Positions 249-63,861 of a stretch of DNA of 64,000 nt are shown piece by piece. Position 1 is the first letter of the stretch; every line of letters begins with the position of its first letter. The notes under the pieces were generated by a model. That model was not told where the DNA came from. It saw only the letters and a list, made by a program, of their open reading frames with translations, and ran no database searches. Origin of the DNA: Chiloscyllium plagiosum (Eukaryota); contig NC_057755.1 of the NCBI RefSeq assembly GCF_004010195.1, forward strand, positions 9,029,306 through 9,093,305, read 5' to 3'. The translations under genes were made by a program, and so were the position numbers.

Positions 249-338
249 ACATGGTTTGGAGATGCTGGTGTTGGGCTGGGGTCTACAAAGTTAAAAATCA
301 AACAACATCAGGTTATGTTCCAACAGATTTACTTGGAA

Positions 339-375
339 GAACTAGCTTTCAGAGCGCTGCTCCTTCATTAGGTGG
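339..375 (-). ncRNA. Degenerate minimal hammerhead ribozyme motif in PLE terminal repeat
   Basis: Reverse complement CAC-CTAATGA-AGGAGCAGCGCTCT-GAAA-GCTA-GT; core G5 is changed to A, so probably inactive. Confidence 0.55.
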
Positions 376-2025
376 CTGTGGAGTATAAGATTGTAAGACA
401 CAAATTTGTAGCGAAAGTTCCATGTGTGATGCAACTGAAAATATATGTTGAAAATGACCTAGAATGTTTGTTAAGTCATCTTTTCAATGACCATGTTGGT
501 TTCAATTCTTTCATACATAAATCCCAGAAGCTTTTTATGAAATTTACATTCTCAAATGAACTTTAACAGTACGTGCCATGTCAACTCGGATCATGGATTG
601 AACATGTGAGGTGCGCAATGTTAGGCTGTTTGTGCCTAATGTTCAGACTGATTCTATTACTTAAAAAAAATGGATTTACAGAATCTAACATGGATTCACG
701 CAGTTTATCAGGAAAATAAACGTAATTCTTCAAGTAAAAATTCACCTCACAAGCGTGTGTGTGTGCGCGTGCATGCATGTGGGTATGTGTGTGTGCGGGG
801 GGAGGGGAATGACTGCCTGTGACAGAGTATGTATATATATCTGTGTGTGAGTGTAAAGAGGTATCAGTCTATGAGAGGGTGCGTGTGCGGTTATGGGTGG
901 AGATGAGTATGTGTGAGCATATAAGAGAGGGTTTATATGTGAGAGAAGGTTTGCGTGAGTGTATGGGCGTGTGTGTGTGTGTATATATGTGTGTGTGTGT
1001 AGTGCAGTGGGCTTACATGCACTGTAACATGAACACAAGTTCCCCAGTTGAGGCGATCCCCGTGGGTATTGAACTTGGCTATTAGCTTCTGCCCGACCAC
1101 ATTGCGTTGTTGCCTGTTGCGAAGTCCGCCTTGGAGAATGGTAACCCAAGGGTCCGAGGTCGAAAATCCTGGACTGCTGAAGTGTTCTCCGACTGGGAGG
1201 GAAAACTCATAGCTGGTGATTGTTGTGTGGTGTCCATTCATCTGTTGCCATAGCCTCTGTTTGTTCTTGCCAATGTACCATGCCTCAGGGCATGATTGCC
1301 TGTAGCGTATGAGAGAGACAACATTGCCCTGGTCACATGAGTAACATGCCACGTTAATGGTGGGTGGTGCCTCCTCGTGTAATGATATTATTTATGTTGA
1401 CACACTTACACGTCTTGCAGTGTCTGCCATGACAAAATTATATGTCCTGAAAGCCGGGAAGGTTGCAGCAAACTTTGATCTGTTTGAGGTTTGGTATTGT
1501 TTAAAGGCGAGAACTGAATGCATGGGGAAGGTCTTGGCAAGGTGCACATTTCCATTCATAATGTGTTACAGACTGTGATGGACATGCGCACATTTTCCAC
1601 TCCTGAAAAGTACTAGACAACGAAGGGTACCCTGTCAGTTGCAGCTCATGTGTGTCTCTTGAGGAGGTCATTATAGTTTCTCGCAGGGCACGTCTAACTT
1701 GGCGGCCGATGAGTTGAGCATCAGACTGTATTCTTATGTGGGCATCCCTGAGTACTTGCAAGTGCCCGTCATTTTCCTCTTCATCTGAACACATCCTGTG
1801 CATGCGTAGCGCTTATCTGTAGGGGATGGCTGTTTTAGTATGTTTTGGGTGGAAACTGGAGAAGTGTAGCACCATGAAGTTATCCGTGGGTTTGTGGTAG
1901 AGTCATGTGCTGAGTTGCCCATCCTTGATGTCGGTGCATGTATCGAAGAATAAGACAGACATGAATACGTAGTACATGGTGAATTTGATGTTGGGTTGAA
2001 ACTCGTTGATATCACTGTGTAGTTT

Positions 2026-2607
2026 TTTCAGTGACTCCTCGCCATGTGCCTAGAGGAAGAAAATGTCGTCAATATGCCTGGTGTATAGTGTTGGTTATCG
2101 GTCCGCGCAGAGAAGAAGTCTTGCTCGAACATGTGCATTCAAATGTTAGAATATCGGCGTGTACATTCTGTCCACATGGCTGTTTAATACGTTTGGATGA
2201 AGAACTGGTTATCAAAGGTGAAAACGTTGTGGTCGGGGATAACGTGGATGAGTTGTGCGATGGTGTTCAGAGATTGGCTGTTGTTAGTGTTGATTAGTGA
2301 GGCTGTTGCGGTGATGTTTCAGTGACCCTCGCCACGTGCCTAGAGGAAGAAAATGTCGTCAATATGCCTGGTGTATAGTGTTGGTTGTCGGTTCGCGCAG
2401 AGAAGAAGTCTTGCTCGAAAACGTGCATTCAAATGTTAGCATATCGGCGTGTACATTCTGTCCGCTTGGCTGTTTCATATGTCTGGATGAAGAACTGGTT
2501 ACCAAAGGTGAAAACGTTGTGGTCGGGGATAAAGTGGATGAGTTGTGTGATGGTGTTCAGAGATTGGCTGTTGTTAGTGTTGATTAGTGAGGCTGTTGCG
2601 GTGATGC
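2026..2607. repeat. Tandem duplication, about 291-bp unit, inside the PLE RT core
   Basis: tttcagtgac...gttgcggtgatg occurs at 2026-2316 and again from 2317; near-identical ORFs 2031..2297 and 2336..2587. Confidence 0.9.
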
Positions 2608-2709
2608 CGTCATTGTGGGGGATGCTGGTGTAGAGTGCTGAAACGTCCATTGTGACGAGGAATGTTCCCAGTTCAAACGGTCTGGGAGTGCTGAGACCCC
2701 ACAGGAGGG

Positions 2710-4810
2710 ACACTGCCCTGGGTGTGACATGCACGCTCAAACCCTCAGGAAATATATAAATGCCAGATTCATCAGCTGCATATACAAGATAGGTCAAAGC
2801 ATCACCATCAATCACAACGCAACACCATCCAAGTTCTCAAAATCAATCACAACATTGTCAGCAAAGGAATAGGTGAAGGAGGATAAATTTTTCATTCAGA
2901 ATAGAACACCATACTGCAAGAAAGTTACTGACAACTGAACAACCAGGAACATCAGGCAATTACCGGCTGATCCAACCAAAAAGCACACCCATGCACTAAA
3001 CACATTGATCAGACCTTTGGATCGAGTCCTTCGGAGTTCCCTATGCGCCGTCATCGCTTGAATTTCTCGCGTAGGGACCTCTCCTGCCTTCCGAAAATAC
3101 AAAAGCGAACACATCAGTATGTCCTATCGTTTCAGACAATGGGACCCTGTGTGAGAACCTCTCTGACTACGTCGAAGGCATCTTGAAACCCATCGTAATG
3201 GGTCCACCCAGCTTCTGCTGCGACACTACACATTTCTAACAGAAGCTCAGCACCCATGGACCAGTCAAAACACAACATTCCTCATCACAATGGATGTTAC
3301 AGCACTCTACACCAGCAACCCACCATGACGGCATCATAGCAATAGCCTCAATACTCAACGCCACCAACTGCCAATCTCCTAGCACCGCACTACAACTCAT
3401 CTGCTTTATCGCCAACTATAACATTTTAAACTTTGACAAATAGTTCTTCATGCAGACACACGGAACAGCAATGGAGATGAAATTTGCATCCCAATATGCT
3501 AACACGTTCATGTAAAGTTTCGAACAAGACTCCTTCTTTGCGCAGGACCTCCAAGCAGTACTATACACGAGGTATATTGACGACATTTTCATCCTATAGA
3601 CACATGGTGAGGAGTCAATGAAACAACTGCACAGTGATATCAATGAGTTTCATCTCACCATCAAACTCACCATGGACTAGTCTTTAGCATCTGCCTTATT
3701 CCTGCACATATGCATCGCCGTCTAGGATGGGCACCTTCGCATCTCGCGCTAACGCAAACCCACAGATAACCACATGATGCTACATTTCTCCAGCTTCCAC
3801 CCAAAACATATTGAAACAGCTATCCCCTACGGACAAAACCACACTTACACAGGATCTGTTCTGATGAGGAGGAACGTGACGGGCACTTGGAAATACTCAA
3901 GGAAGCCCTCATAAGAACGGGGCACTTTGCCTAACTCATCAACAGCCAGTTCAGACATGCCATCGCGAGAAACCATGTTGACCTCCTCAGGAGACGACAT
4001 GAGCAGCAACCGACAGGCTATCCTTCGTTATCCAGTAATTCCTAGGTGTGGACAAACTACACCATGTTCTTTACAGTTTGCAAAACATTATCATTGAGGT
4101 TGTGCACCTTGCCTAGACATTCCCCAGGCCTCCAATTCTCTCCTTTACACAAACACCAAACCTCAAACGGGTCATTGCTCGCAGCAAACTGCCCGGCTTT
4201 CAGGACAACATGATACAACACTGTCACGGCAGACACTGCAAGACATGTCAGAGTGTCGATACGGACACCACCATTACACATGGGAAAACCACCCACCATG
4301 TATGCGACAGGTACTCATGTGACTCGGCCAACATTGTCTATCATATACACTCCAGGCGAGGATACCCTGAGGTATGATATATTGGCGAGACTGAGCAGAG
4401 GCCACAACAATGGATGAATAGGCACCACACAACATTCAACAGACAAGAGTGTTCCCTCACAGTTGGTGAATACTTCAGCAATCCGGGATATCGACTTTGT
4501 ACTCCAAGGCAGACTTTGGAACAGGCAACAATGTAAAGTAGCTGAGCAGGGGTTGGTGACCAAGTTCGGGACCCATAATGATGGCCTCAACTGGGACCCG
4601 ACTGTACTACACACTTAATCTCACACACACATACACAGACCCATGCACTCACCCAGACACTCTCTCATACACAAGCTCTCTCATACGCTCACAGATGCAT
4701 AATCACACTCACGCCCACACACACACAACGTCTCAGACTTATACCCCTTTGCACTCATATACACACACTCTCAAAGGCACTCATAGCATCACACACATGC
4801 ACATATAATT
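2710..4810 (+). mobile_element. Penelope-like element, decayed, head-to-head with the minus copy; 3' end continues at 7245-7703
   Basis: TFLITMDVTALYTS (~3275), HGTAM.MKFASQYAN (~3460), RYIDDIF (~3570), YSCDSANIVY...*YIGETEQR (~4312-4400), then a CA-rich tail. Confidence 0.85.
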
Positions 4811-6693: not shown

Positions 6694-7244
6694 ACACTTA
6701 TAAAAGACCCACAGTAGCCGTTCCTTGAATAAGCTCCAAATTTCAAGTGTGTCCATCCCTTGTAGTTTCCCTCCCTATCCTATGCGTCCTAAATCTTGCC
6801 TAAGTGCATTGCATTTCCCTCAGTTATATCTCTTTCCCTGCGGTATATACCTATCCCTGCCCATTGCCACTATATATAGTCACTATCACCAAAGTGTGCA
6901 CCTACCTCCAAATCTAAAACCTGGCCGGGTTCATTCCACAGGACCAAATCCAATATGGCGTCGCCCCTTGTTGGCCTGTCTACATACTGTGTCAGAAAAC
7001 ACTCATGCACACATTGAGCAAAAATTTACACATCTAAACTTCTTGAGCTATAGCATTCCCAGTCAACATTTGGGAAGTTAAAGTCCCCCATAACAACTAC
7101 CCTGTTCCTCTCGCTTCTATCAAGAATCATCTTTGATATCCTTTCCTCTGCAGCACGAGAACAATTCGTAGGTCTATAGAAAATTCCCAACGGAATGACC
7201 TCTCCTTTCCTGTTTCTAACCTCAGCCTAAACTACATCAGTGTG

Positions 7245-7703
7245 GTGAATTGTTATGTGCAGAATAAAATTGTATTTAACTCAAAAACTGCACGAATCCA
7301 AGCTAGATTCTGTAAATCACTTTTTAAAAAAGGAATAGAATCAGTCTGAACATTGGGGCACAGACAGCCTCACACAGGGCACATCACACCTTCAATGCAT
7401 TATCTTAGCTGACATGGCACCTCTTGCTGATGTTCACTTGAAAATGTAATGTTTTGAAAAAAACGTTTCTTAGATTTATGTATGGAAGAACTGAAACAAA
7501 CATAGTCATTCCAAAACATAAAAAAAGTCCAGTTCGTTTTCAATATGTAATTTCAGTTGCGTCACATTGTAAACTTTTGCCATAAATACTGTGTCTTACA
7601 AGCATATACTCTACAACCACCTGATGAATGAGCATCTCTCCAAAAGCTGCTGCGTCCAAATAAAACTGTTGGACTATAACCTGGTGTTGTGTAATTTTTT
7701 ACT
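7245..7703 (+). mobile_element. 3' terminal repeat of the plus-strand PLE, with a degenerate hammerhead motif at about 7618-7652
   Basis: Inverted counterpart of 290-750; CAC-CTGATGA-atgagcatctctcc-AAAA-GCT (GAAA mutated). Confidence 0.75.
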
Positions 7704-10228: not shown

Positions 10229-11142
10229 TCACTTTTCCTTTCGCTTGAGCAATATCAGAAAAAATGAACAAGGGAATGCTAACATTTCCTTCAGTTCTTC
10301 CCTAAATTTCCTTTGTGTGGCTGTATAAATACACACGTTTGTGCATGAACTCAAATACATGAGCATGTAGCCCGTTTCAGTGGCAATGTAGGCAGGAGCT
10401 GCATAATCACCCCGATAATGTGCAGTGTTTGTCATCCTCGTAGATAAAAAGCTCACAGCTGCTGTCAGCCAAAGGAGAATAAAACTCCCTGATATAGTGA
10501 AGAGTAAAATAATGGACCTTCTTCGACTTTCCATCTCTGGGTCTCTTTGACTCTTATGAATGCTTCCACGGACAGCTCTGCGAGATCTATTGGCGATGAC
10601 AATACGCCTGATGGTCAAGCAGTTAAATGTGAATAGCAAAGGAAATGGAAGCCAAAGAACTAATATACTTTGTAACCAGGAGAATGCTGTACCCAACGGC
10701 GAAGTGAAGAAGTTCAATTTTGTGCGGCAACCCCACTGTAACTGATCAATTACTTGTTCAGGTTCATATGCAAACAAATAGGGTATGTTCTCCAGACAAA
10801 CCAGGGCAGTGGTGATCATTATAACTGCACCCGCTATCCTCACTCTGCAATATTTTGTTTTCAGTCTCTCACAACATATAAATACATATCGATCAAATGT
10901 GAACATGACCGTGAACCACACTGACATGTACAGGGTGACTGAGCTCATGTAATTAAGTAACTTACACACTCCAGTGTAGAAAAAGAACGAATGTGTAAAG
11001 TGATAACTGAAGATTCGAAACACAGTTATGTTGAAGATCATGACCAGAAAAGCTGCTGTTGCCATGGCCATCATGTAAGCAGAGGTACAAGTGGAAAGGC
11101 CGCAGTTTCCCTTGGAGAGAATGATCATTGTCGCCAAGTTTG
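10229..11142 (-). CDS. GPR139/GPR142-like class A GPCR, gene A, exon 2 (TM1 end to stop)
   Basis: Open 914-nt exon after acceptor ttacag; seven hydrophobic segments when joined to exon 1; SVWFTVMFTFDRY, ECL Cys pair (GVCK/WGCR), SGSFILLW, SSCTNVCIY...KFREEL. Confidence 0.93.
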
Positions 11143-12134
11143 CTGTAAGCCAATTTAATCAAAGAGAAAAAACAGAATCATTCAGAAAAAGAAATTCTAC
11201 AAACTTTGTGGTGAAATTCTGAAAAGTTTGCTACTCAAAAAAATAGTGCAATGCTATTTTTCATTAACTGTGTCAGAGTAATGGAAAGTGCATTATGGGA
11301 TAACAAATCATTGAATACTCAGAATGGAGAGACTGATACGTTGGCTTGTTTCCAACATCATCCAGTGAATTGCTTTCAACTATTTCAAAGTGAATGGTAG
11401 GAGTTGTCCTCTCATAGGTTAGGTTACTTTCAGATATGTGAACTGACAGCCAAATGAAATCACCGCAGGAACATTAAAATGCTTAGTGCCTCGGAAAATT
11501 GAGCCCAATGGTTCCTAAAAACGACTCTTTGAATCAGCAGGGCAATATTAGACACAAGGTATATCGCTCAAACAAAAGACTAAACAATTTGTTAACAATG
11601 TATTAACTGAAGCAGAGCAATTTTAAGCAGCAAAGTAATCGATCTAATGGCGAAGTTTTAACACCAATCCTAATTAGAGCCAGTAGTCTGGTACCAAGAG
11701 AAAAAGACCAACAGGCAAATTGAGGACCAAATGAATAAGAGAAACACATTAATTATGATTTACTGGTCATGTCGCTTTAGCAGTTTCGACAATCTGCATC
11801 ACCACTGACACAACAGATTGCAGATTTCTTGGTTTCAAATGACTCTGACGCATGCAGAAAACTTACTGCCGGCTCTATAGAATATTCATTTGATTCTTAT
11901 ATCCGAGATTGCATACTCTGAAATTTAAATATGTTGGTAATAAGAGGATAATCAAGGAGCAAACAGAACTTTGTGCTGTATCTTTAAAATGCACAATCGT
12001 TCTGTTCCAAATGCAGCCCAAAGACTATTTCATTCTCTGGGCCCTACTTCAATAACAAGAAAGCAGAGATTATGAAAATACAATCTCATGTGTTCGGATC
12101 AAATGAATATTCTTTGAAGCCTGCTGTGGAAAGG

Positions 12135-21649: not shown

Positions 21650-21948
21650 AGGAAGTGAGGACTGCAGATGATGGAGATCAGAGTCAAAAAGTGTAGTGCT
21701 GGAAAACCACAACCTGCCAGGCAGCATCCGAGGAGCAGGAGAGTCGGTGTTTCGACTTAATCTAGATTCACCACATTCCTGATGAAGGGCTTATGCTTGA
21801 GGAGCAGGAGAGTCGACGTTTCGTGTGTAAGCTCTTCATCAGGAATGTGGTGAATCCTGATAAATAGATTAAGTCGAAACACCGAATCTCCTGCTCCTCG
21901 GATGCTGCCTCTCCAGCTGTGATTTTCCAGCACTCCACTTCTTGACTC
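21650..21948. mobile_element. Palindromic PLE-terminus element with several hammerhead-like cores
   Basis: 21681-21796 is the reverse complement of about 21826-21948; CTGATGA at 21779 (+), CTGATGA...GAAACGTC at 21811-21846 (-), CTGATAA...GAAACACC at 21857-21883 (+). Confidence 0.8.
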
Positions 21949-46740: not shown

Positions 46741-47380
46741 AGAGGGATAATATATCTTCAAAACAATTATGCAAGCATGGAATCATGCAACATAGAAGAT
46801 GACTCCTCGGTACAACAAACTATATCAGCAAAAATAAACTGCGAGCTGCACTTGTCCCAATTTCCTGCACTGGTCCAGTAGCTTAGCATGTTATAACACT
46901 TCACCTGATAATCCAATTTCTTCCTGAGGATTACGTGATTTCTCGCCTCAACTACCCTTCAAGGAAGTGCGTCTCAGACCACCACCTGCCTCAAGGTCAA
47001 AAATTGCTTCCTTATATCGCTTCAAAAACCCCTGCCTTTCATTTTCAAATTATGTACCCATGTAACGGACCCTTCTAGAAAGCGGAACAATTCTACCCAC
47101 ACTGTCCATGTTCTGCCCTATTCGTCACTGCTTAGACCTTGGGCTACCTGACCACAGGGAGGTCTAATGAATTTCTCAGTGAATGACTAATTTTCATGAG
47201 ACGGAGTTCAGAACATTTACAAGTGTCGGCGTTTGAAATAGGTGGAGGGTAAATCCCGCCTCGTTGTCAAGTTTCCAAAAGGAAATTTCAAATATTTGGA
47301 TCAGTGGTCATCAGGATTCTCAAGAAATTATCTTTGTCTGGAGTTGATTTACTCCACGGAATGAGGAAGCAACAGTCAAA

Positions 47381-47592
47381 GCCATGCCTCTAGGAACGGA
47401 GAACAGCCAGGGAATGCCTAGAGGCATGGCATTCATCCACAGATTTAATCAGTAAGCACATCGATCTGGACCCAATATACCAACCACTGCAATGGACAGC
47501 TGGAACCAACAACCGGAAGTGGCAGATTCAAACCACTACAAATGCCGGAGAAAAATCACAGAAGCGCTGCACAAGAGGCTCCCAAGCACTGA
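47381..47592 (+). mobile_element. Partial copy of the palindromic PLE-derived element, including its inversion junction
   Basis: gccatgcctctaggaacggagaacagccagggaatgcctagaggcatggc; RTARECLEAWHSSTD..KHIDLDPIY (GIY-YIG C-terminus). Confidence 0.85.
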
Positions 47593-47729
47593 AAATCCTC
47601 TGAACTTGGTTCCTTCCTCTATGTTGCAAATATTCGCCTTTGGGTTTCCTTCCCTGTCAAATACCTTTGGAGCATATTCACCTGACACAGCATTCTCACA
47701 GGCAGGTTTGACACTGAAACAGATGTGTG

Positions 47730-50700
47730 TTTAAGTTAAGTAGTCTGGGGGGGAGAGCAAATTGGAAATTCAAGGAAGAAGTTAAACGCAAAGTAAGAAT
47801 AAGAGAAGTTAAGGAAGACAACAGAATTAACGGAGCAGAAAACTTAAGAAGGGATCATACAGTATGGTCAAGTGAAATAGGGATTGATAGGAAGGGTGAG
47901 GGGAGTAACAAATTAAATGAATTACATATGGATGCATGAAGCATGAGAAATACGGTGGATGAGCTTGAGTCTCCGTTGGAAATTAGCAGGTATGATGTTG
48001 TGGGGATAACTGAGACGTGGTTTCAAGTGGACAGGTCCTGGGAAATGAATATCCAAGATTCTACATGCTATCGAGAGGGCAGACAGACGGGAAGAGGTGG
48101 TAGGACTGCCCTGAATGGTGAGGAATGATGTTGAGTTGCTTGCGATGGAGAACATAGCATCAGGACATATAGAGTCAGTATGGATAGGGCTGAGAAATTC
48201 TAAGGGTAAGAAGACCCAAAAAGGAAGTTATCTACAGGCCCCCAAACAGTGGTTTGGACGTAGGGTGAAAGTTGAATAACGAGTTGAAATTGGCCTGTTG
48301 CAAAGGTATTACTACAGTGGTTATGGGATATTTCAACATACAAGTAGACTGGGAGAATCAGGATGGTACTGAACGCCAACAAAGGGATTTTGTCGAGTGC
48401 CTCCAAGATGGTTTCTTAGAAGATATTGTACTGGAGCCAACCAGGGAGAAGGCAATTCTGGATGTGGTGTCGTGCAACGAATCGGATTTAATCAGAGACC
48501 TCGAAGTAAAAGAGCCATTAGGGGATAGTGACCATAATATGATCTGTTCTAATCTGCAATTTGAAAGGGAGAAGGGAGAATCGAAAGTGTCAGTATTGCA
48601 GTTGAACAAAGGGAACTGTGGATCTATGAGGGAGGAGCTGGCCAAAGTTCAATGGTTCAATACCCTAGCAGGGATGGCAGTGGAACAACAATAGCAGGTA
48701 TTTCTGGATATAATGCAGAAGGTACAGGATCAGTTCATTCTAAGGGGGAAGAAAGATCCTAAGTGGAGCCAGGGACGGCCGTGGCTGACAAGGGAAATAA
48801 AGGACTGTATAAAGTTAAAAGGTATAACATAGCAAAGATGAGTGGGAAGCCGGAGGAATGGAAAATTTAAACAGCAGCAAAATGAAGTACGAAGGTAAAC
48901 TTGCTAAAAATATAAAGGAGGATCGCCAAAAGTTTTAAGGTATGTGAAAAGAAAAAATGGTTAAGACTAAGATTGGGTCCTTTAAGACAGAAACATGGCA
49001 ATTTATTATGGGGAACAAGGAAATTCCAGAATGTTGAATAGGTACTTTGGCTCTGTCTTCACTGGGGAAGACACAAGCAATCTCCCAGATGTAATAGTGG
49101 CTGAAGGACCTCGGGCAATAGATGAACTGAAGGGAATTTATATAAAGCAGGAAATGGTGTTGGATAGACTGTTAGGCCTGAAGGCTGATAAATCCCCGGG
49201 AACTGATGGTCTGCACCCCAGGTTACTTATGGAGATGGCTCTAGAAATCATGGACACATTGGTAATCATTTTCCAATGTTCCATCGAATCAGGATCAATT
49301 CCTGTGGATTGGAAGGAGGCTAATGTTGTCGCACATTTCCATGACAGGAGGGAGAGAGAAAACAGGGAATTATAGACCGGCTAGCCTGATGTCAATGGTG
49401 GGAAGATGCTGGAGTCAATTATAAAAGATGAAGTTACGACTTGTCTGGATAGCTGTGACAGAATAGGTCAGAGTCACCATGGATTTATGAAAGGGAAATT
49501 GCGCTTGACTCATCTTCTGGATTTTTTTGAAGATGTCACTATGAACATGGACAAGGGACAAAAAGTGGATGTAGTGCGCATGGATTTTCAGAAAACCTTT
49601 GAAAAAGTCGCAAATATGAGAGTAGTGAGGAGAATTATGTCACATGGTATTGGTGACAAAATACTGACTTGGATTGGTAATTAGCTGTCTTATAGGAAGT
49701 AAAGAGTAGTGATATACGGGTCCCTTTCAGATTGGCAGGTGGTGACCAGTGGAGTATCACAAGGCTCGGTGCTGGGACATACATTAATGATACAGATGAA
49801 GGTATTAAAAGTAATGTTAGCAAATTGGCTGATGAAACAAAGCTCGATGGCCGGGTGAAATGTTAGGAGGATGTTATGAGAATACAGAGTGGCTTGGGCA
49901 GGCTAGGTGAGTGGACAGATTTGGCAGATGAAGTTTAATGAGGATAAATGTGTGGTTATCCACTTTGGTGGCAAAAACAGGAAGGCAGATTATTATCTAA
50001 ATCAAGTGAAGTTAGGTAAAGGGGAACTACAAGGAAGATCTAGGTGTTCTTGTACATCAGCCAATGGAAACAAGCAGGCAGATACAGCAGGCAGTGAAGA
50101 AAGCTAATGGCATGTTGGCCTTCATAACAAAAGGAATTGAGTACAGGAGCAAAGAGAGCCTTCTGTAGCTGTACAGGGCCCTGATAGACAGCACCTGGAG
50201 TATTGTGTGTAGTTTTGACTTCCAAATTTGAGGAATATCAAATTCTGTCTAGAGAGGGAGTGCACAATACATTCACGAGGTCCATTCCCGGATTGGCGGG
50301 ACTATCATAAGTTGAAAGATTGGAGCGACTGTGCTTGAGACACTTGGGTTCGGAAGGATGAGAGGGGATCTGATTGAGATGTATAAGCTTATTAAATGAT
50401 TGGACATTCTGGAGGCAGGAAGCATGTTTCCACTGATGGGTGAGTCCAGAAACAGAGGACACTGTTTAAATATAATGAGGAGGCTATTTCGAGCAGATTT
50501 GAGGAGAAACCTCTTCACCCAGAGAATGGTGGATGTGTGGAATCCTCTCCCTCAGAAGGCAGTGGAGGCCAAGTGTCTGGATACTTTCAAGAAATAGATG
50601 GATAGCGTTCTTAATGATAGTGATCAATGGTTGGGGGATAAGGCAGGAACAGGATACTGATCGTGGATGTGTCAGCCATGATCATGATGAATGGTGGTGC

Positions 50701-50745
50701 TAGTTCGAAGGGCCGAATGGCCTACTCCTGCACCTATTGTCTATT
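47730..50745 (+). mobile_element. CR1-type LINE ORF2, near full length (APE endonuclease + RT), inactivated
   Basis: YDVVGITETW, VMGYFN, EPLGDSDHN, KSPGTDGLHPR, SHHGFMKGK, DVVRMDFQKTF, WQMKFNEDKC; 3' end cctactcctgcacctattgtctattg; many stops. Confidence 0.92.
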
Positions 50746-53700
50746 GACACAATCTGTGAAAATTCTTTCTGTCTGGATTCCGTATCAAGTGGTTCACATC
50801 GCACAATTTCCATTCAATTATTTGCTGTTGGAAAATCCAATTGTCTGAATGAGTGTTTTTCGGGAGAGACTAAAAATTTCCTTTGTATGGAGTTCATTTA
50901 CTCTGGGCAATGATGCAGCTTGAGTCAAAGTTAACCAATTTCTAGAATCATGACAATTTAAGTTGCACCCCAATGGGCAGAACTGATGTAACAATTTTCT
51001 TCTTTGAATTTAATGCAATCGTGTAAAGTGTACAAAAAATGGCAAAATAAGGACTACAGTCCGAGTCACACACATGACAACCAAATGAGAAGGCAGTTGC
51101 AAATATGTGTGAGAATGAGCATAACTTAAAAGAGGTTTTCAGCATCAACTGAATACAAGAAACAGATTCAGAGATTTTACTCTAAAGCTAAGGCTGAGGG
51201 AGTTCCATTGTTTTTATTCATATATTCACAGGACGTGGTCAGTGACGTCAGGACCAACACTAATGGCCTATCTCATCAGTATATTCCAGAGTGCAGCGAA
51301 ACATCAAAAACACTGCTGTGGATCTGGAATCACATGGAGGACTGAATATGGAAGATGGAAATGTAGTTTGCCAAAACGTTATTAGTCAATTAGTTTAGTT
51401 TATGACAATGGAGAGTGATCACATTTCTTGGTGTCAGAATCCAGAAACAGCGTTCTACAATGTATTGCAGGTCAGCAAGTGAACTTGTTGCTCTTCAAGA
51501 ATGTAGCTGAACGTCACCAGCTCAAGAGCAATCAGGGATGGGCAATAAAGTTCATGCCCAGTCAGCAATGGCCATGTAAAAATAAAAAATCGGCCAGGTA
51601 TTGTGTTTCTGAATTTCATCAAAATAGAACACATCATCTGCGACAATAACAAGTAAGTATATGCCCACAGATATAATGTCCTGTTTAACCAGTATAGTAG
51701 TACAACGGCACATCCTTTCTCCTCTATGTTCTCATCTCGATGGGTTAATGATTGTGATACTTTTAACAAACGTAACAACTGTGAGAACCTTCAAGTCAAG
51801 TAGGACACATCATTACCCCCTTCCAGGCTAAATAAAACAAGCTATGAAAGAAAAATCAACCGAACTACTCTGTGTGACCTAGATTTTTCTAGATTCCCTG
51901 TGAAAGGTAAATAATAGCAAATTAGTGCAATAAGGAATCCGTTGTTAATAAGGTGATCACGGAAGAGGAAGGTGATTTGAAATGGAAATTCTCCTGAATG
52001 CATGTTTTCTGAGTTAATACGAACTTAAATTTGTTCAGAAAGTAAAATTGGAGAAACAATACTACAGTATTGTTACATTCAGATATTTAGATAATAGAAC
52101 AGTCAATGAGGCGCGTCTGGAGCAGAATTCTACAAGGTTACCAAAGTGGAAGCGAAGTATATTAGGGATGTCATTGTGAACTTTTTAGAGTCCTAAATGA
52201 TGTGGCGATGCCAGTTTTGGACTGGGATGGATTAAGTCAAAAGTCACACGTCACCACGTTATAGTCCAATAGATGTACTTGAAATCACTAGCATTCGGAG
52301 CATTGGTCCTTGGTCAGGTGAAGTGGAGGGAGACGCACAGTCACATAATGTATAGATGTAGCATGGTTTCTCATGACTTTTCCTTTACTCCTAAATGATA
52401 CTCGTGTCGCCGACTCGTGTTCTGGAAATGAATGATTTGTTGAATAAAGCAACGGATTTATATTTTTTTGTTGCGTGGATAGTACACAGATTCATTAGGT
52501 GGGGTACGTATCCGTTGCAGTTAACAGAAATGATGTTAGGGGTAGACAAGAGAAATTCTAATGATAACTGTCTCACCCATCCCTTCCAATTGTTTAATGG
52601 TCTGTGCTTTGTTGACTACTCCTACCTGTCAACAATGAGAAAGAATGGCTCAAGCCATCGTAGTATTTGAACACAGTGCCACCAGAGTATTACTTGGATG
52701 TTTGGATTAATAATTCAACAATAGTAACACTGGGTCATCTCTTCCCTCTTGGACCTTGAGATAATACTGCTGATCGAGTGTATGGTTCATGAATTCCTGT
52801 GGAGAATGCAAATGAAAACTAAAGCACGATGCACTTCTGATGTCACCAATTTAATCAAAGGATGGACATCTTCTCTTTTATTGCTGAGAAGATGTCCTTG
52901 TTCCTGCAGCTTCTACCAAGAAGAGTCGTTCACATTGTAATATCAAGTCATGATTATAAATTCGTTTTTAGTAAAGTTCTTGCGATTGGATATTGAGACC
53001 TATCCAGTCATAAAATAACAGTATACCAACAACGTTCCTTATCGTTCCAAATTTCTTCTACAGCTATAACAACACCAACAGACATATCTTTGTAATGTGA
53101 AGTGTTATTAGTTTTTGGATGTTCATTAAATTTAGATATTCATTAAATCAGATCTTTTCGCACTGCGCATTCACCTAATTAAAACTACAAGTTCAGCATC
53201 GCTTGTTCTCTGAACAGGCGAATATGACCACGTTATTTAGAGAATTTGGAAGGTGCGTGCTTTCTGAATGCAGATAGACAAGCAGTAGTCAAGCAATCTG
53301 AGGAAACTATGACTTCAATAACTGTTTCATTCTGTTCCTCTCTCAGCCTCTTCAAAGCAGTTTCATCCAGAGATTAAAATGCATGGGATCCATGGTGACA
53401 TGGTCGCTTCGATTCAGAATTGGCTTGGTTCGAGGAGGTAGTGGGAAGTGGTGGAAGCACAGTTTTAGTCTTGCAGTCAGTCCATCAGAATTTGTGTTTC
53501 AAAATGACCTGAACTTGAACTTCTGTTGTTTGTGATAGGACATAGGATAGTGTAACAAAGGATCGAGGCATCCAGCCCACACTGTTGTGCTGAACATGAC
53601 ACCATACTATCCGTATCCCTTCTTCCTGCCCTTGATCCATATCGCTCCATTCTGTGCATGTTATTGTGCTTATCTTAAAGTGCTTTAGAAATCTCTAATG

Positions 53701-55325
53701 TATCGGCCTCCATCACCACCCCTGGTAATGTGTTCCAGTTCATTGTTAACATCTTTGTAAAAACTAGTGCGCCTGCCAACTCCTTTTCATTTTCTCCCAC
53801 TCACCTGAATGCATGCCACCCCGTATTAGAAATTTCTGCTCTGGGAAAAAGAAGAAATTCAGATTGTCAATCCTATCTATGAATGTTCCCACATTCCACA
53901 ATGTGAGTCTGTAATGACGTCCTCTGGAGACAGACACAGGATGCGACAGCGAATGTTCCCTTCGTTGACTGGTAATTCCTGGGAGTAGAGAAACTGTGCC
54001 ATGTTCTTCGCAGCTTGCAACACATCATCGATGAGGATGAGCAACTAACCAAGGTCTGCCCGACGCCCCCACTTCTCACCTTTAACTAACTCCCAAAACG
54101 TGAACACTCCATGGTTTGCAGCAAACTGTCCAGCCTTCAGGACAACATCGAATACAACACCATACAACCCTATAATAGCAAGCACTGCAAGGTATATCGG
54201 AATGTCGACATGGCTACTACTATAACTCTTGGGGACACAACCCATGACGGGGCAGCAAGTAATCATGAGACTCGGCCAGTGTTGTCTCACTCATAAGATG
54301 CAGGCAATGATGCCTGGGGCATGGTACTTGGGCAAGAGTAAGCAGTCACTATGACAATGGATGAGTGGACACCACGCAACAGTCGCCAGAGAGCAATCTC
54401 CTATCTCATTCTGGAACAGTTCAGAAGTAAAGGGCATTGAGTCGTGGATCTTTCACTAACCATTTTCCAAGGCGACTTCGGGATACACAACAATACAGAG
54501 TCACCGAGTATAGGCTGATAGCCATGTTTGATACCCATGATGATGGTCTTGAATGGAATCTTAGGTTAATGACTTATGACAGGTGGCCCCATTATACGAT
54601 ACACTCTTGCACATAAACCCACACACCAGAAAGATACGCACACAACCTTATACATGATCGCACTCGCACACTCACGTAGATGCTCTCTCATATGAATGCA
54701 ATTTCAGATGCACACAAACGTACATTCACATTCAATACCCACTCTCTGACAGACATATACTCTGTCATATTTGCACGATCACACTTTCAAGCACGCACAC
54801 ACGCACTCAGACTTTCTCTCCCTCTCTACCACACACATACTCTCACACACATTTACACACACAGGTGCACACCTACACTCTCACGTTCTCTCTCTCTCTC
54901 CCTCACACACATATAAATGCACGTACACACACATATACGTCTATGGTATGAATTTGCAAATTCAGATGAGCAGATGCATTTTTTTAAAAAACACACAATC
55001 TGTAGGCAGTCAGTCAATGTGACATCATATAATTTCATATTTTAGAAATACAACCAGTCTGACTCATATTTATAATACAGACAGATTCTAACCTCACAAC
55101 TTCAATGCATTGTCTGTACCGATATGTCACTTTTTTAACAAAAACATTTATCTCGCGAATGTGACTTGCAAATGCTTTGGGATTTACATATTAATGATTT
55201 GAAACATATAGCCCCATTCTAAATGATTAAGACTGAACAGCAATCTAGGTTTGTTCAATAGATTGCATCAGTTGTACAACAATCTTATCTGTTGTGTTTC
55301 TGTTCGCCAAGCTGGGAATTTGTTT

Positions 55326-55365
55326 GCAGACGTTTCGTCTCCTGTCTAGGTAACATCCTCAGTGC
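55326..55365 (-). ncRNA. Minimal type-I hammerhead ribozyme motif, core intact
   Basis: Reverse complement GCA-CTGAGGA-TGTTACCTAGACAGGAGAC-GAAA-CGTC-TGC; stem I GCA/TGC. Confidence 0.78.
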
Positions 55366-55715
55366 TTGGGAGCCTCCTGTGAAGCGCTTCTGTGATCTTT
55401 CCTCCGGCATTTGTAGTGGATTGAATCTGCCACTTCCGGTTGTTAGTTCCAGCTGTCCGTTGCAATGGTGGGTATATTGGGTCCAGGCCGATGTGCTTAT
55501 TGATTGAATCTGTGGTTGAGTGCCATGCTTCCAGGAATGGAGAACAGCCAGGGAAAGCCTAGAGGCATCGCATTCATCCACAGATTCAATCGGCCTGGAC
55601 CCAATATACCCACCATTGCAACGGACAGCTGGAACTAACAACCGGAAGTGGCAGATTCAATCCACTACAAAAGCCGGAGGAAAGATCACAGAAGCGCTTC
55701 ACAGGAGGCTTCCAA

Positions 55716-55755
55716 GCACTGAGGATGTCACCTAGACAGGGGATGAAACGTCTGC
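55716..55755 (+). ncRNA. Minimal type-I hammerhead ribozyme motif, core intact
   Basis: GCA-CTGAGGA-TGTCACCTAGACAGGGGAT-GAAA-CGTC-TGC; predicted cleavage after C55752. Confidence 0.78.
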
Positions 55756-56744
55756 AACACAAATTTCCAGCTCGGTGAACAGAACCACAACAATGAGCAC
55801 CCGAGCTACAAATCTTCTCACAAACTTTGAACAATTTTATATTTTAGTAGGAATGCTGTGCCCTATGATCCTGCCCCTCCAGCGAGGTGATGAAGAAGCA
55901 GTTCTCCAAAGGCTTGTACTTCCAAATAACCATGTTGGACTCTACCCTGATTTTGTGTATTTTTTTAAACGTTGTCCACCCCAGCCCAATCCCAGCATCT
56001 TCACGACATCAAATTTCCCCTCAGCCTCTGCTGCTCAGAAGAAAACAACTCGAGTTCTTCTAGCCTCTCTTTTCAGCTCACACCGTCTATCCAGGCAGAA
56101 TTCTGATAAACCACTTCTGCATCCTCTCCAAAGTTTCCAGATTCTTCTTGTAATGCTGTGAGCAGACTTTAACGCAAAGCTGTCAGTGTGGCCAAACAAA
56201 CGTTTACTAAAAATGCAACACAGCATGTTGTGTCCTCTCCTCAATTCCCCGACCAATAAAGACAAGCATGCCACATGCCCTCTTTACCAGCCAATCACCT
56301 TGCATGGCCACTTTCATATAAGATCTCTCTGTACATCAGTGTTGTTCCGGGTCCTGTCATTAGCTGTATACTTTTCCTTAACATTTGATCTCCCAAAGTA
56401 ACAATTAGTAAGTTCCCTGTGCGTGCTATACCTAGGTACTAGTTACTGCGACTCATTTCCAAGACATCCAAATCCTTCTGCACTGAAACACTCAGATGTT
56501 TCTCTTCATTTCGATAATAATTTGCCTTTCCCTTCCTCCAATTAAAATGGACATCCTCTCAATTATCTGTGATAAAGATAATCTGCTAATTTTTGCCCTA
56601 TTATCCATAACGACTTTGTAAATTTTTAAATTCTTCACTACATATGACGTCCATAACGTATTATTGTGTAATCTGCAAATTTATTGTGGTGTGGATGACG
56701 CCTCATGCTCGGAGGTGCCTGGTTTAGTTGAAGGGGACTATGGT

Positions 56745-57611: not shown

Positions 57612-59635
57612 GTAAGTCAGTAATATTCTATTGTTTCACACGATCATTGTATTGTTACAGCGCAGAAAGGGATGTCTAACCCCCTGCTATGCTTTTTGAC
57701 AGTTTCAAACACTGCGGTCAATGAAGATCGCTGAGACACATAGAAAGTAGGGGCAGGAGGAGGTTATTTAGTCCTTCAAATTGGATTGCATTCGTAAATG
57801 AATTGGTGACCTCCAATTTGTAGTTAGACCAGGGAGTCAATAAAGTAACGAGAAAGTTACCACTTACTTATAAAAGAATGATGCATAATATAGAGAGGGC
57901 ACGCTGCAAATATACAAGGCATTAGAGAGTCTGCACAAGGAGCATTGTTTAACATTTAGTGCCCCTTACCTGAGAAGATGTATTCTTATATTGCAGTCAG
58001 ACCTGGTTCATTCGATTGATGCTAGAAATGAAGGTTTTGACTTTCGAAGAGAAACTGAACACTTTAAGCCATTACTCTCTGGAATTTAGAAGGCTGTGTA
58101 GAGAACTAACTGTGGTATATCGGAAGCTAAAAAGAGCCAGCAGAGTAGATGTCGTCTGGATACTTACTTTTTGGCACATCTGGAAGAGATTTTGCCTTTT
58201 TAGTCCGAGGGGAAGCAGAATTAAAACAGAGATGAGAAGGACCTACTTCCCTCAAAGGGCCGTAAATCTGTGTAATTCACAACACCATTGTATGGTAAAT
58301 GTTGAGAAAGTAAATAAATGTAAGCAAGGAATAGAACATTTTGTAATGATTAATGTGCTGCTGGGCTGTGGAGAATAGGCCACCAAGTGAGACCGAGATG
58401 AAATTAGTCATCATGACATCAAGTTCTGGAACAGGATGGAAGGACTGAATGGCCTCCCCGCTCCTCGGTCTTATTTTGTACATTCTAATCTCGTCAGTAG
58501 TTTCACATCTTACTGAATGCATGGTAGCTCTGAGTGAACGCAATATTCCAGCTGAGGCAGAAGTAGTACTTTACACACATTGAACATAAACTGCTTGCAC
58601 ATGATCTACGTGTCCATAACAATTAACTGAAGTAATTTGCAAATCAGTCTGACAACCTATCCCGGCAATGTCAGTAACGCATCCACCCAGTTCCACTTCA
58701 TCAGTTTTCCATGGCAATACATTATTAAAATATGAAAGTATTGCAGTAATTCAATCAAATCATATAATCAATTCGCTGTCTTATTTAATTCGAGAATTTC
58801 ACTGAATAAATAATTGTGTAGTGCATGAGAGCCGGCTACATGAAGTAATTGACAGGGATAACATCATAGACACAGAATGGATACATTTGTTTTTGATGAT
58901 ACCTGTGAATGGATACTCTTTGTATGAATGTTGTGGTTATGTCGTACAATCAAAGTAGTACACCATTTATTGGAGATAAAGCAAGGGAACTGGGGGAGGG
59001 GGGGTGCATTTAAAATCTAAAATTCAAAAAGTTCAAGGATCTGTTGATGCTACTATTAGGAAATGGAGAATGAACCTTAACTTTGATAGTCGGCAATTTG
59101 AATCAAAAAGGTGAGATGATAATGCCCAGCCATCTTCCATTAGGACTGGAAACGAGTATTGTTTACAGGTTTGGGCAACCCAACTGATAGATGAAGTCAA
59201 GGATGCTTTAGTGAAGTTGTGAATTGCGTTACTTAATGAATCTAAGATCAAAGAAGAATGGGAGATGAATATTCGATTAATACAAGACCCTATGCAAATA
59301 TTGAACATGAAGAGGAGTTTTGATATAATCAGAAGAAGCCAATTATTTATGCTGACATTTAGAACAGGAAACATAAACCTATTAAAATTAGATTATTTTA
59401 CAATTCTGTTTTCCCATTGGACAGAGAGGACAAGTGTTAGTTTAAAATGAGGATCACCTTGTCTCAGATGACTGGAGGGTGTCTGAAGGAGAGTCCTTCA
59501 TCGCAACCTCAATCAAACACGCTGTTCACATCACTCAGCTGACATAAACCAAATGTCCCCTCAGTAAAGTTAACTGAATTCATTGCACGACAGGTTTTAC
59601 ATCTCTATCCCATTATTGCCTCTTAATTTCTTGTA

Positions 59636-60009
59636 CTGAAGAATGTGTTGCCAGAAAAGCGCAGCAGGTCAGGCAGCATCCAAGGGGCAGGAGAATCGAC
59701 GTTTCGGTCATAAGCCCTTCTACAGGAATGAGGAGGTGTGCCAAGCAGGCTAAGCAGGAGGTTAAAGTATATGTCCCCACCCCCTCTCCGGCCTATCACC
59801 CTCATCTTAATCTCCTTCCACGTATCGCATTCCCAACGCCCCTCCCCCAAGTCCGACCTCCCTACATTTTATCTTAGCCTTCCTGAAGAAGGCCTTATGC
59901 CCGAAAAGTCGATTATCCTGCTCCTTGGATGCTGCCTGACCTGCTGCGCTTTTCCAGCAACACATTTTTCAGCTCTGATCTCCAGCATCTGCAGTCCTCA
60001 CTTTCTCCT
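59636..60009. mobile_element. Palindromic-ended PLE-derived element, 374 bp, with 15-bp TSD and two hammerhead motifs
   Basis: TCTTAATTTCTTGTA at 59621-59635 and 60010-60024; inverted ends of about 90 bp; cores at 59694-59729 (-, CTGTAGA) and 59880-59914 (+, CTGAAGA..GAAAAGTC). Confidence 0.88.
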
Positions 60010-61990: not shown

Positions 61991-62947
61991 GTTATTGAAG
62001 TAGAGGCAAAGTACTGAATTAGTCTTTGGGCTGCATTTGCAGCAGGAGGATTGTTTCTATTAAAGCTACAGCACAAAGTTCTGTTTGCTCCTTGATTGTC
62101 CTCTTATTACCAACATCTTTAAATTTCAGAGAGCACGCTCTCAGTTCCACGAATCAATTGAATATTCTCTAGACTCGACAGTAAGTTTTCTGCATGCATC
62201 AGAGTAATCTGAAAACAAGAAAACTACAGTCTCGTCTGAGGGGGATGACAAAGATTGTAGAAGCAGCTACAGCAAATTGACCAGTAAATAACATTTAATG
62301 TGTTTCGCGTTTTCATTTATTCCTTAATGTGACTGTTTGTCATTCTGTCTTGGTGCCAAAGTACCAGCTCTAAATAAAGAAGATTGGTTGTGAAAACGCA
62401 GCCATTAGTTCGATTACTTCACTGCTGAAAATTATTCTGCTTTGGTTAGTACATTGTTAGCGAATTGTTTTGTTCCCATTCTGAGGGACAGACCTCATAT
62501 CGATATTAGTTATTCACAAAGTCTAGTTCTGATGATTTACAGAGTCTGTTTAGGAACCATTCAGAATACTTTTGCGAGGCACTGAGCATTTTAAAGTTCC
62601 TGCAGTTAAAATAACAATATAAGGATGCTGGTTTGATTTGGCTGTCAGTCATTGTATCTTACACAATGTAACCATTAATAATGGCACCTTCTACTATTCA
62701 CTTTGAAATAGTTGAAAGCAATTCACTGGGTGATGCGGGAAACAAGTCAACTTATCAGTCCCACCATTCTGAGTATTCAGTGATTTGTTATCCCTTAATG
62801 CACTTTCCATTACTCAGACACAGTTAATGAAAAATAGCATTTCACACTATTCTGAGTAGCAAACTTTTCACAAATTCACCACAAAGTTTGTAGACTTTCT
62901 TTTTCTGAAAGATTCTGTTTTATGACGTTGATTAATTTGGTTTTCAG

Positions 62948-63861
62948 CAAACTTGGCGACAATGATCATTCTCTCCAGGGGAAACTGTGGTCTTTCCAAT
63001 TGTACCACTGCCTACATGATGGCCATGGCAACAGCAGCTTTTCTGGTCATGATCTTCAATGTAACTGTCGTTCGAATTTTCAGTTATCACTTTACACATT
63101 CGTTCTTTTTCTACACTGGAGTTTGTAAGTTAATTAATTACATGAGCTCGGTTACCCTGTACATGTCAGTGTGGTTCACAGTCGCGTTCACGTTTGATCG
63201 GTATGTATCGATATGTTGTGAGAGGCTGAAAACAAAGTATTGCAGAGTAACGATAGCGGGTGCAGTTATGATGATCACCACTGCCCTGGTTTGTCTGGAG
63301 AACATACCCTTTTGGTTTGCATATGAGCCTGAACAAGTAATTGGTCATTTACGATGGGGTTGCCGCACAAAGTTGAACTTCTTCATTTCGCCATGGGGTA
63401 CAGCATTCTCCTGGTTACAAAGTATTTTAGTTCCTTGGCTTCCATTTTCTTTGCTACTCACATTTAATTGCTTGACAATCAGGCGTATTGTCGTCGCCAA
63501 TATATCTCGCAGAGCTGTCCGGGGACACAATAGTGAGAGTCAAAGAGACCCAGAGATGGAAGGTCGAAGGAGGTCCATTATTTTACTCTTCACGATATCG
63601 GGAAGTTTTATTCTTCTCTGGCTGACAGCAGCTGTGAGCTTTTTATCTACGAGGATGACAAACACTGCACATTATCGAGGTGATTATACAGCTCCTACCT
63701 ACATTGCCACTGAAACTGGCTACATGCTCATGTATTTGAGTTCATGCACTAACGTGTGTATTTATACAGCCACACAAAGGAAATTTAGGGAAGAACTGAA
63801 GGAAATGTTAGCATTCCCTTGGTCCTTTATTCTGATATTTGTCAATCGAAAGGAAAAGTGA
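62948..63861 (+). CDS. GPR139/GPR142-like class A GPCR, gene B, exon 2
   Basis: Acceptor ttttcag, 914-nt open exon; FDRY, SGSFILLW, SSCTNVCIY; 34 differences from gene A over the 302-aa ORF. Confidence 0.93.

Follow-up and report, generated by a model that had tools for sequence, protein, structure and literature searches.

Copy A (positions 47381-47592) and copy B (55289-55829) carry the same inversion junction, which very probably has a single origin and does not belong to the PLE family as a whole. Both lie in a single 64,000-nucleotide stretch of the Chiloscyllium plagiosum genome (contig NC_057755.1, positions 9,029,306 to 9,093,305 of the forward strand), here called the window. As to how A came by the junction, we lean towards local copying from B at the DNA level.

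A and B both represent the 3' end of a Penelope-like retrotransposon (PLE) family that is abundant in sharks. The sense arm codes for the last ~65 aa of a P0002-type protein (tblastn), and the named hits of this protein family, 4 among 15 candidates, were all from Chiloscyllium punctatum. P0002 scored 27.4 bits against RVT_1, slightly below the Pfam cut-off of 29.6, and a Pfam search of P0002 itself gave no GIY-YIG hit; its C-terminal part had a score of 0.95 with clusters having GIY-YIG in 15-20% of their members. P0013, a more distant relative, was above the cut-offs for both RT and GIY-YIG. By motif scan, a hammerhead-like core lies directly after the ORF stop in each arm of B, and the loose ends of reads and contigs indicated that the core motif continues in the family behind 47592. 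RT, the GIY-YIG-like C-terminus and the hammerhead-like core after the stop point to an endonuclease-bearing PLE as the parent, with RT and, at the C-terminus, a GIY-YIG domain predicted in a single ORF and with a putative hammerhead motif, of degenerate core, in the terminal repeat. An Rfam search of 55200-55900 found no hammerhead and only 2 chance matches, and the putative cores folded no better than shuffles. With the A peptide, Pfam returned 0 families; with P0002, a PDB sequence search returned 3 weak matches, none of them relevant. As a separate observation, P0005, a predicted Chiloscyllium MAP3K7 isoform, has ~160 aa of the PLE endonuclease region at its end, which is either an exonisation or a gene-model artefact.

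Copy B is a complete head-to-head PLE insertion, with an inverted copy, a direct copy, a one-sided tail and a probable TSD. It is located in the 3' region of an older PLE of another family (53909-56003, + strand), whose homology to 257-1676 (reverse) and 7240-7703 is found on both sides of B, and omitting roughly 55289-55829 restores this host PLE. The inverted left arm (55289-55537, - strand) contains the ORF end, the stop and a hammerhead-like core at 55362-55329, and has no tail. It is followed by the 18-nt spacer of the shared junction (55538-55555, +), a sense right arm (55556-55792, +) with a 12-nt deletion and a hammerhead-like core at 55719-55752, and a 37-nt extension, the PLE 'tail', which is present on the right arm only (55793-55829, +). 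The probable TSD copies of 11 bp, at 55278-55288 (left, +) and 55830-55840 (right, +), are identical at 10/11 positions. Such a repeat of 11 nt with 1 mismatch was equalled by 20/300 shuffles, so the TSD call leans on the continuity of the host.

The arms of B (55289-55537 and 55556-55792) differ by 16 substitutions in 239 columns, with 7 differences in the inner 23 nt, 0 in the middle and 9 in the outer 113 columns. The substitution-free stretch (55410-55515 of the left arm against 55578-55671 of the right arm) covers 94 aligned columns, of which 83 lie past the 12-nt deletion (P 0.004; 0.023 when the stub is left out; the deletion not being counted). All the letters common to both B arms against A (4/4) lie inside this tract, which suggests that the middle of the arms was probably homogenised later by arm-to-arm gene conversion. 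The 7 inner differences led us to consider also a model in which the long left arm of B was copied at insertion from a template that had only the 16-nt stub seen in A; it is disfavoured, because the outer columns of the B arms carry differences while the middle carries none.

Copies A and B have the same layout, an inverted arm stub of 16 nt, a spacer of 18 nt and a sense arm. In A, the stub (47381-47396, - strand) is the antisense of the PLE ORF end and matches the reverse complement of 47415-47430 at 15/16 positions. The spacer (47397-47414, +) comes from the parent PLE and occurs on a single arm, and the sense arm (47415-47592, +) is the end of the PLE GIY-YIG ORF (tblastn of P0002/P0003, E ~1e-19). 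A has a 2-nt overlap with the linear parent at 47395-47396. With the family T at 47416, positions 47411-47418 form an 8-nt palindrome; the inverted arm ends at the centre of this palindrome, which is lost from the right arm in both A and B.

Between 47381-47430 of A and 55522-55571 of B, 45 of 50 bases are identical. BLASTN aligned the whole A segment with 55522-55722 at 85% over 213 columns (E 7e-66), and the A/B alignment has 18 substitutions in 200 aligned columns plus the 12-nt deletion in B. The 52-nt hairpin of A has a folding energy of -28 kcal/mol (z -5.5), equalled by 0/200 shuffles; the folding of B's decayed centre is unremarkable (z -1.4, equalled by 19/200 shuffles). When A-left was compared with B-left and A-right with B-right, the best local scores were 28 and 26, values also reached among 100 shuffles (maxima 39 and 34), and by this comparison the immediate flanks of A and B are unrelated. 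The sequence-only reading, which had reported that the junction recurs at 47381 in unrelated immediate flanks, was correct in this. It had also called A a second, independent locus, and of that description the recurrence stands, but 'independent' goes too far, as A is 8.1 kb from B, in the same orientation and within a segmentally duplicated GPCR cluster. A is moreover a 212-nt fragment carrying the 16-nt stub, not a second palindrome.

For comparison with the family at large, 4 of 24 listed runs were aligned to 47340-47640 at 80% likeness. X1, X13 and X10 are shark DNA runs from three different organisms, of which X1 may be the window's own sample, and X21 is raw RNA; a run search had named no RNA run as a carrier. 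The fraction read was ~64% for X13, ~89% for X10 and ~2% for X21 (233 X21 reads aligned).

Three letters that are rare in the family and common to A and B show, at the level of sequence comparison, that the two copies share descent and that the junction was inherited. At 47416, A and the right arm of B have G, in contrast to a family T that makes up 99.9% of X1 depth and 53/54 X21 reads. At 47508 they have A, where the family has G in 99.7% of X1 depth and 74/75 X21 reads. At 47398 both copies have G, and the Gln found in 5/5 close homologues suggests that the family letter there is A. In the left stub of either copy, the position equivalent to 47416 still has the family T, so the asymmetry of the arms is older than the split between A and B. 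Each copy has acquired ~9 private differences in 200 nt since that split. Positions 47492, 47520, 47432 and 47489 are common to A and B but frequent in the family and were left out of the count of rare letters; 47551, tried as a fourth shared rare letter, owed its apparent sharing to the way in which the 1-nt deletion of A at 47549 is aligned.

These letters bear directly on whether the junction could have formed twice independently, at a fold-back hot spot where the arm ends at the centre of the palindrome that 47411-47418 forms with the family T. The 8-nt palindrome is indeed present in the family sequence, and a passage of PMC3846280 proposes that PLE inverted junctions arise through palindromes that prime themselves. 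However, a double origin would leave the three shared rare letters unexplained, its overlap with the parent is only 2 nt, and a hot spot in so abundant a family would yield a high junction depth, whereas the depth observed is near the single-locus level. We regard it as very improbable.

Depth in the DNA runs was summed over Logan contigs, in which rare variants are dropped and a filter removes some records, and summed depth is no copy number. Over the stub (47384-47394), depth was 15 in X1, 0 in X13, 23.9 in X10 and 0 in X21. In the next bin, it reached 294,586 in X1, 34,465 in X13 and 166,575 in X10, which gives stub to next-bin ratios of ~5e-5 (X1) and 1.4e-4 (X10). Over the left flank it was 12.9 in X1, 7.25 in X13 and 25.9 in X10. 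A's own contig contributes 4.66 of the X1 stub depth of 15; the remainder of 10.3 corresponds to about one more locus and, among the 24 of 7556 pieces listed, would fit B alone.

At 47395-47400, the 44 RNA reads of X21 in the three listed groups of loose ends all run into the linear parent, and the share of the junction among copies reaching these positions was 0/44 reads (95% upper bound 6.6%). The loose ends listed there for the three DNA runs were linear parent as well, with 326 further rows beyond the listing. The junction-crossing peptide had 14 protein hits, and of the 9 in which the motif could be scored, 9/9 had the linear upstream sequence and 0/9 the junction peptide, although gene callers would seldom call such a peptide. 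A protein search with this peptide at near lengths gave no candidate. The joint table listed no strand-change joints, not even B's own; it is blind to hairpins and was given no weight on how breakpoints are distributed. A 33-letter pattern scan of metagenome, viral and prokaryotic contigs had 0 matches, a result that is uninformative for a shark repeat. The junction is thus rare and is excluded as a family-wide feature; a few further copies may exist, but the many copies of a non-autonomous palindromic mobile family were not found in these runs.

The same data bear on the reading in which the junction belongs either to the autonomous element in its normal form, as a hairpin-capped pseudo-LTR, or to a family-wide non-autonomous palindrome. 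A does resemble the Adineta pLTRs for which passages of PMC3846280 give palindromes of 18 bp and 38 bp at the 5' ends. Against this resemblance stand the listed loose ends, linear in all four runs, the negligible arm depth and the homologous proteins, linear through the junction site, and this reading retains hardly any probability. In particular, a family-wide hairpin-capped end is ruled out by arm depth and loose ends as far as contigs and the 2% of the RNA run can show. The possibility raised in the sequence-only reading that the junction might belong to the normal autonomous element is excluded likewise, since the parent is linear there. Its main argument, that a fixed junction implies a pre-formed template copied repeatedly, holds for common descent, through the three shared rare letters, and fails for repeated copying, on arm depth and RNA. 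That argument presumed that insertion-time inversions have random breakpoints; in D. virilis Penelope, the inverted arms are said to vary in size between copies in a passage of PMC2377424.

Copy A does not have the marks of a finished PLE insertion. Its 3' end lies four bases into the hammerhead core, at a point where the family runs on (loose ends), and neither a tail nor a complete hammerhead core is present in it. The best candidate in a TSD search at A was 6 nt with 1 mismatch. The host homologies on the left and on the right of A go to different paralogues, so that A appears to sit at a discontinuity of the host sequence: homology to the 25-26 kb paralogue stops at 47371 and homology to 50830-50930 stops at 47381, and homology to the 38.6 kb paralogue begins at 47594. 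Among the paralogues in the window, no contiguous empty site for A was found, and they gave no confirmation of a simple empty site marked by a duplicated 3-nt AAA. The overlaps at the junctions of A are 1-2 nt by inspection, no more than chance, and there is no tandem array near A or B.

The surroundings of A have further features. Its right flank (47593-47636) has a summed depth of 115-580 in the three DNA runs and is moderately repeated host sequence. In X1, depth is 4.66 and 3.8 on the contigs with the two junctions of A, roughly half the 8-10 seen otherwise on flank and stub, and these bin means weakly suggest that A may be present on one haplotype only. Just right of A, a host segment is interrupted by a LINE (47690-50745) whose ORF at 48269-48694 has an endonuclease domain; the 6-nt repeat found at the ends of the LINE may represent a TSD.

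The palindrome itself had been proposed as the mobile unit. The arm depth, about single-locus in two DNA runs and zero in the third, the lack of any RNA read on the arm, and the absence in A of a TSD, a tail and a complete hammerhead core all speak against that claim. What fits best is the outcome that the sequence-only reading had itself set against its claim, namely only two copies that are locally related.

A more restricted kind of mobility was also considered, in which the source of the junction (B via read-through, or a copy elsewhere) was re-inserted in trans by PLE protein and A was trimmed later. The common descent of A and B favours it, B retains the terminal region in full, and a passage of PMC3846280 reports that in Adineta a solo pLTR is enough for trans mobilisation. 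In X10, the arm depth is 23.9 though the left-flank contigs seem to end before the arm (bin means). However, the arm depth is either the minute share of the next bin given above (X1, X10) or zero (X13, X21), and A, with its incomplete ends, would have had to undergo two deletions later. If the source was distant, the landing of two daughters 8 kb apart would further have to assume local targeting. We consider re-insertion of this kind unlikely, and its more specific version, in which a 540-nt ORF-less hairpin was re-mobilised by PLE protein with few daughters biased to nearby sites and A as a trimmed daughter, is slightly less likely again.

Alternatively, A could be the remnant of a segmental duplication, once part of a local duplicate with all of B and later deleted on both sides. 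In its favour, the rhodopsin-family GPCR genes of the window form a duplicated cluster, A and B are oriented alike, and the left flank of A, ~70% like 50830-50930, is a same-strand paralogue of a segment 4.6 kb upstream of B's centre. Yet this flank paralogy of ~70% compares with ~91% between A and B (aligned columns), so the flank duplication looks older, and neither flank of A matches the flanks of B or its host element. A duplication remnant therefore seems rather improbable, and less credible than a re-mobilised hairpin.

The history that we favour, local copying of A from B, would begin with the insertion of B. Following mechanisms proposed in the PLE literature, reverse transcription would have halted ~240 nt from the 3' end, and a strand switch at the 2-nt overlap would have built the mirror arm of B; the junction would have arisen then, once. 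The product would be an inverted copy and a direct copy with a one-sided tail between TSDs. After a few mutations in B, a 212-nt piece across its centre may have been copied 8.1 kb away in the same orientation, B being the presumed donor. Most likely, A would have arisen when a break in the rearranging GPCR cluster was patched from a DNA template. Such a break patch is favoured because one event covers both clipped ends, the absent TSD and the change of host homology across A. A and B would then have drifted ~9% apart, and the middle of B's arms would have been homogenised by gene conversion. A 212-nt patch from 8 kb away would be an extrapolation from published templated insertions. Like the templated insertions of MMB-TI, as described in part of PMC8421209, A would be a short piece from elsewhere at a junction, without a TSD and, by inspection, with overlaps of 1-2 nt. 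The published cases differ in being mostly short, sought within 100 bp of the break, and from human and yeast, compared with 212 nt and a presumed 8 kb for A; passages of the same source report more distant templates only in complex events.

Head-to-head PLE insertions are already known in print. The typical PLE arrangement, according to a section of PMC8557442, pairs a direct copy with an inverted one that is 5'-truncated and has a 30-40-bp tail at one end of the whole; part of PMC3846280 puts head-to-head junctions with palindromes down to self-priming. Like the head-to-head pLTR insertions of Adineta Pen2a, Pen2 and Pen3a (passages of PMC3846280), those in Fig. 2 of PMC8557442 and those of D. 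virilis Penelope (passages of PMC2377424), B consists of an inverted 5'-truncated copy and a direct copy, and it shares with these systems a 30-40-nt tail at one end, a TSD of ~8-11 bp and a short junction hairpin. Unlike the insertions in those passages, B is without the ORF body and has two ~240-nt 3' ends only, and none of the passages describes a junction that reappears as a clipped local copy. A literature search with partial coverage found nothing on shark PLE hairpins or on the reuse of a PLE inversion junction.

The Poseidon element PAc of Anolis, in passages of PMC11167929, resembles the parent family in its ORF with RT and C-terminal GIY-YIG, its pLTR hammerhead and its optional tail, which those passages explain by two internal RT start sites; the arms of B differ by the 37-nt tail. 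Copy A, in contrast, ends at neither arm end of B, and the start sites of PAc are Anolis data. The minimal metazoan PLE hammerheads, as described in part of PMC4209133, share with B the additional base ahead of stem II, the palindromic loop of helix III and the short helix I. They differ in that the putative cores of B are degenerate and have no Rfam match, and A stops after the first four core bases.

The window as a whole contains several related features. Two single-exon, rhodopsin-family GPCR ORFs of 309 aa (10229-11158 and 62932-63861) lie in its opposite halves, in a mosaic of old paralogous blocks (65-92%) with decayed copies near 19.2, 30.7 and 41.5 kb. Three further head-to-head PLE structures with other centres were found at 842-4763, 21681-21948 and 59636-60009. 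The last is an asymmetric hairpin of another PLE family, whose 93-nt arms are 90% alike and which has ~150 nt on one arm only; it has an exact 15-nt TSD at 59621 and 60010, and its short arm ends a few bases upstream of the hammerhead core. The hairpin at 21681-21948 belongs to the same family as that at 59636-60009 and has an extra hammerhead-bearing piece nested in its centre, with a 9-nt direct repeat further out (21633, 21982). At 842-4763, yet another PLE family is represented by a large and old head-to-head pair, with arms 72-78% alike, a spacer of ~600-700 nt and a 280-nt tandem duplication at 2037-2606.

Two copies with a common junction prove descent, not mobility. As it stands, the finding has little weight, and specialists' interest would attach only to a low-copy mobile hairpin. 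The A/B pair is a small worked example of the later fate of a PLE hairpin, by local copying and arm-to-arm conversion. The way in which tandem and inverted ends of PLEs come about is still described as undefined in part of PMC8557442. If the hairpin had in truth been re-mobilised, PLE inversion junctions could come from the template and would not always be made at insertion, which would bear on the question of the origin of inverted pLTRs.
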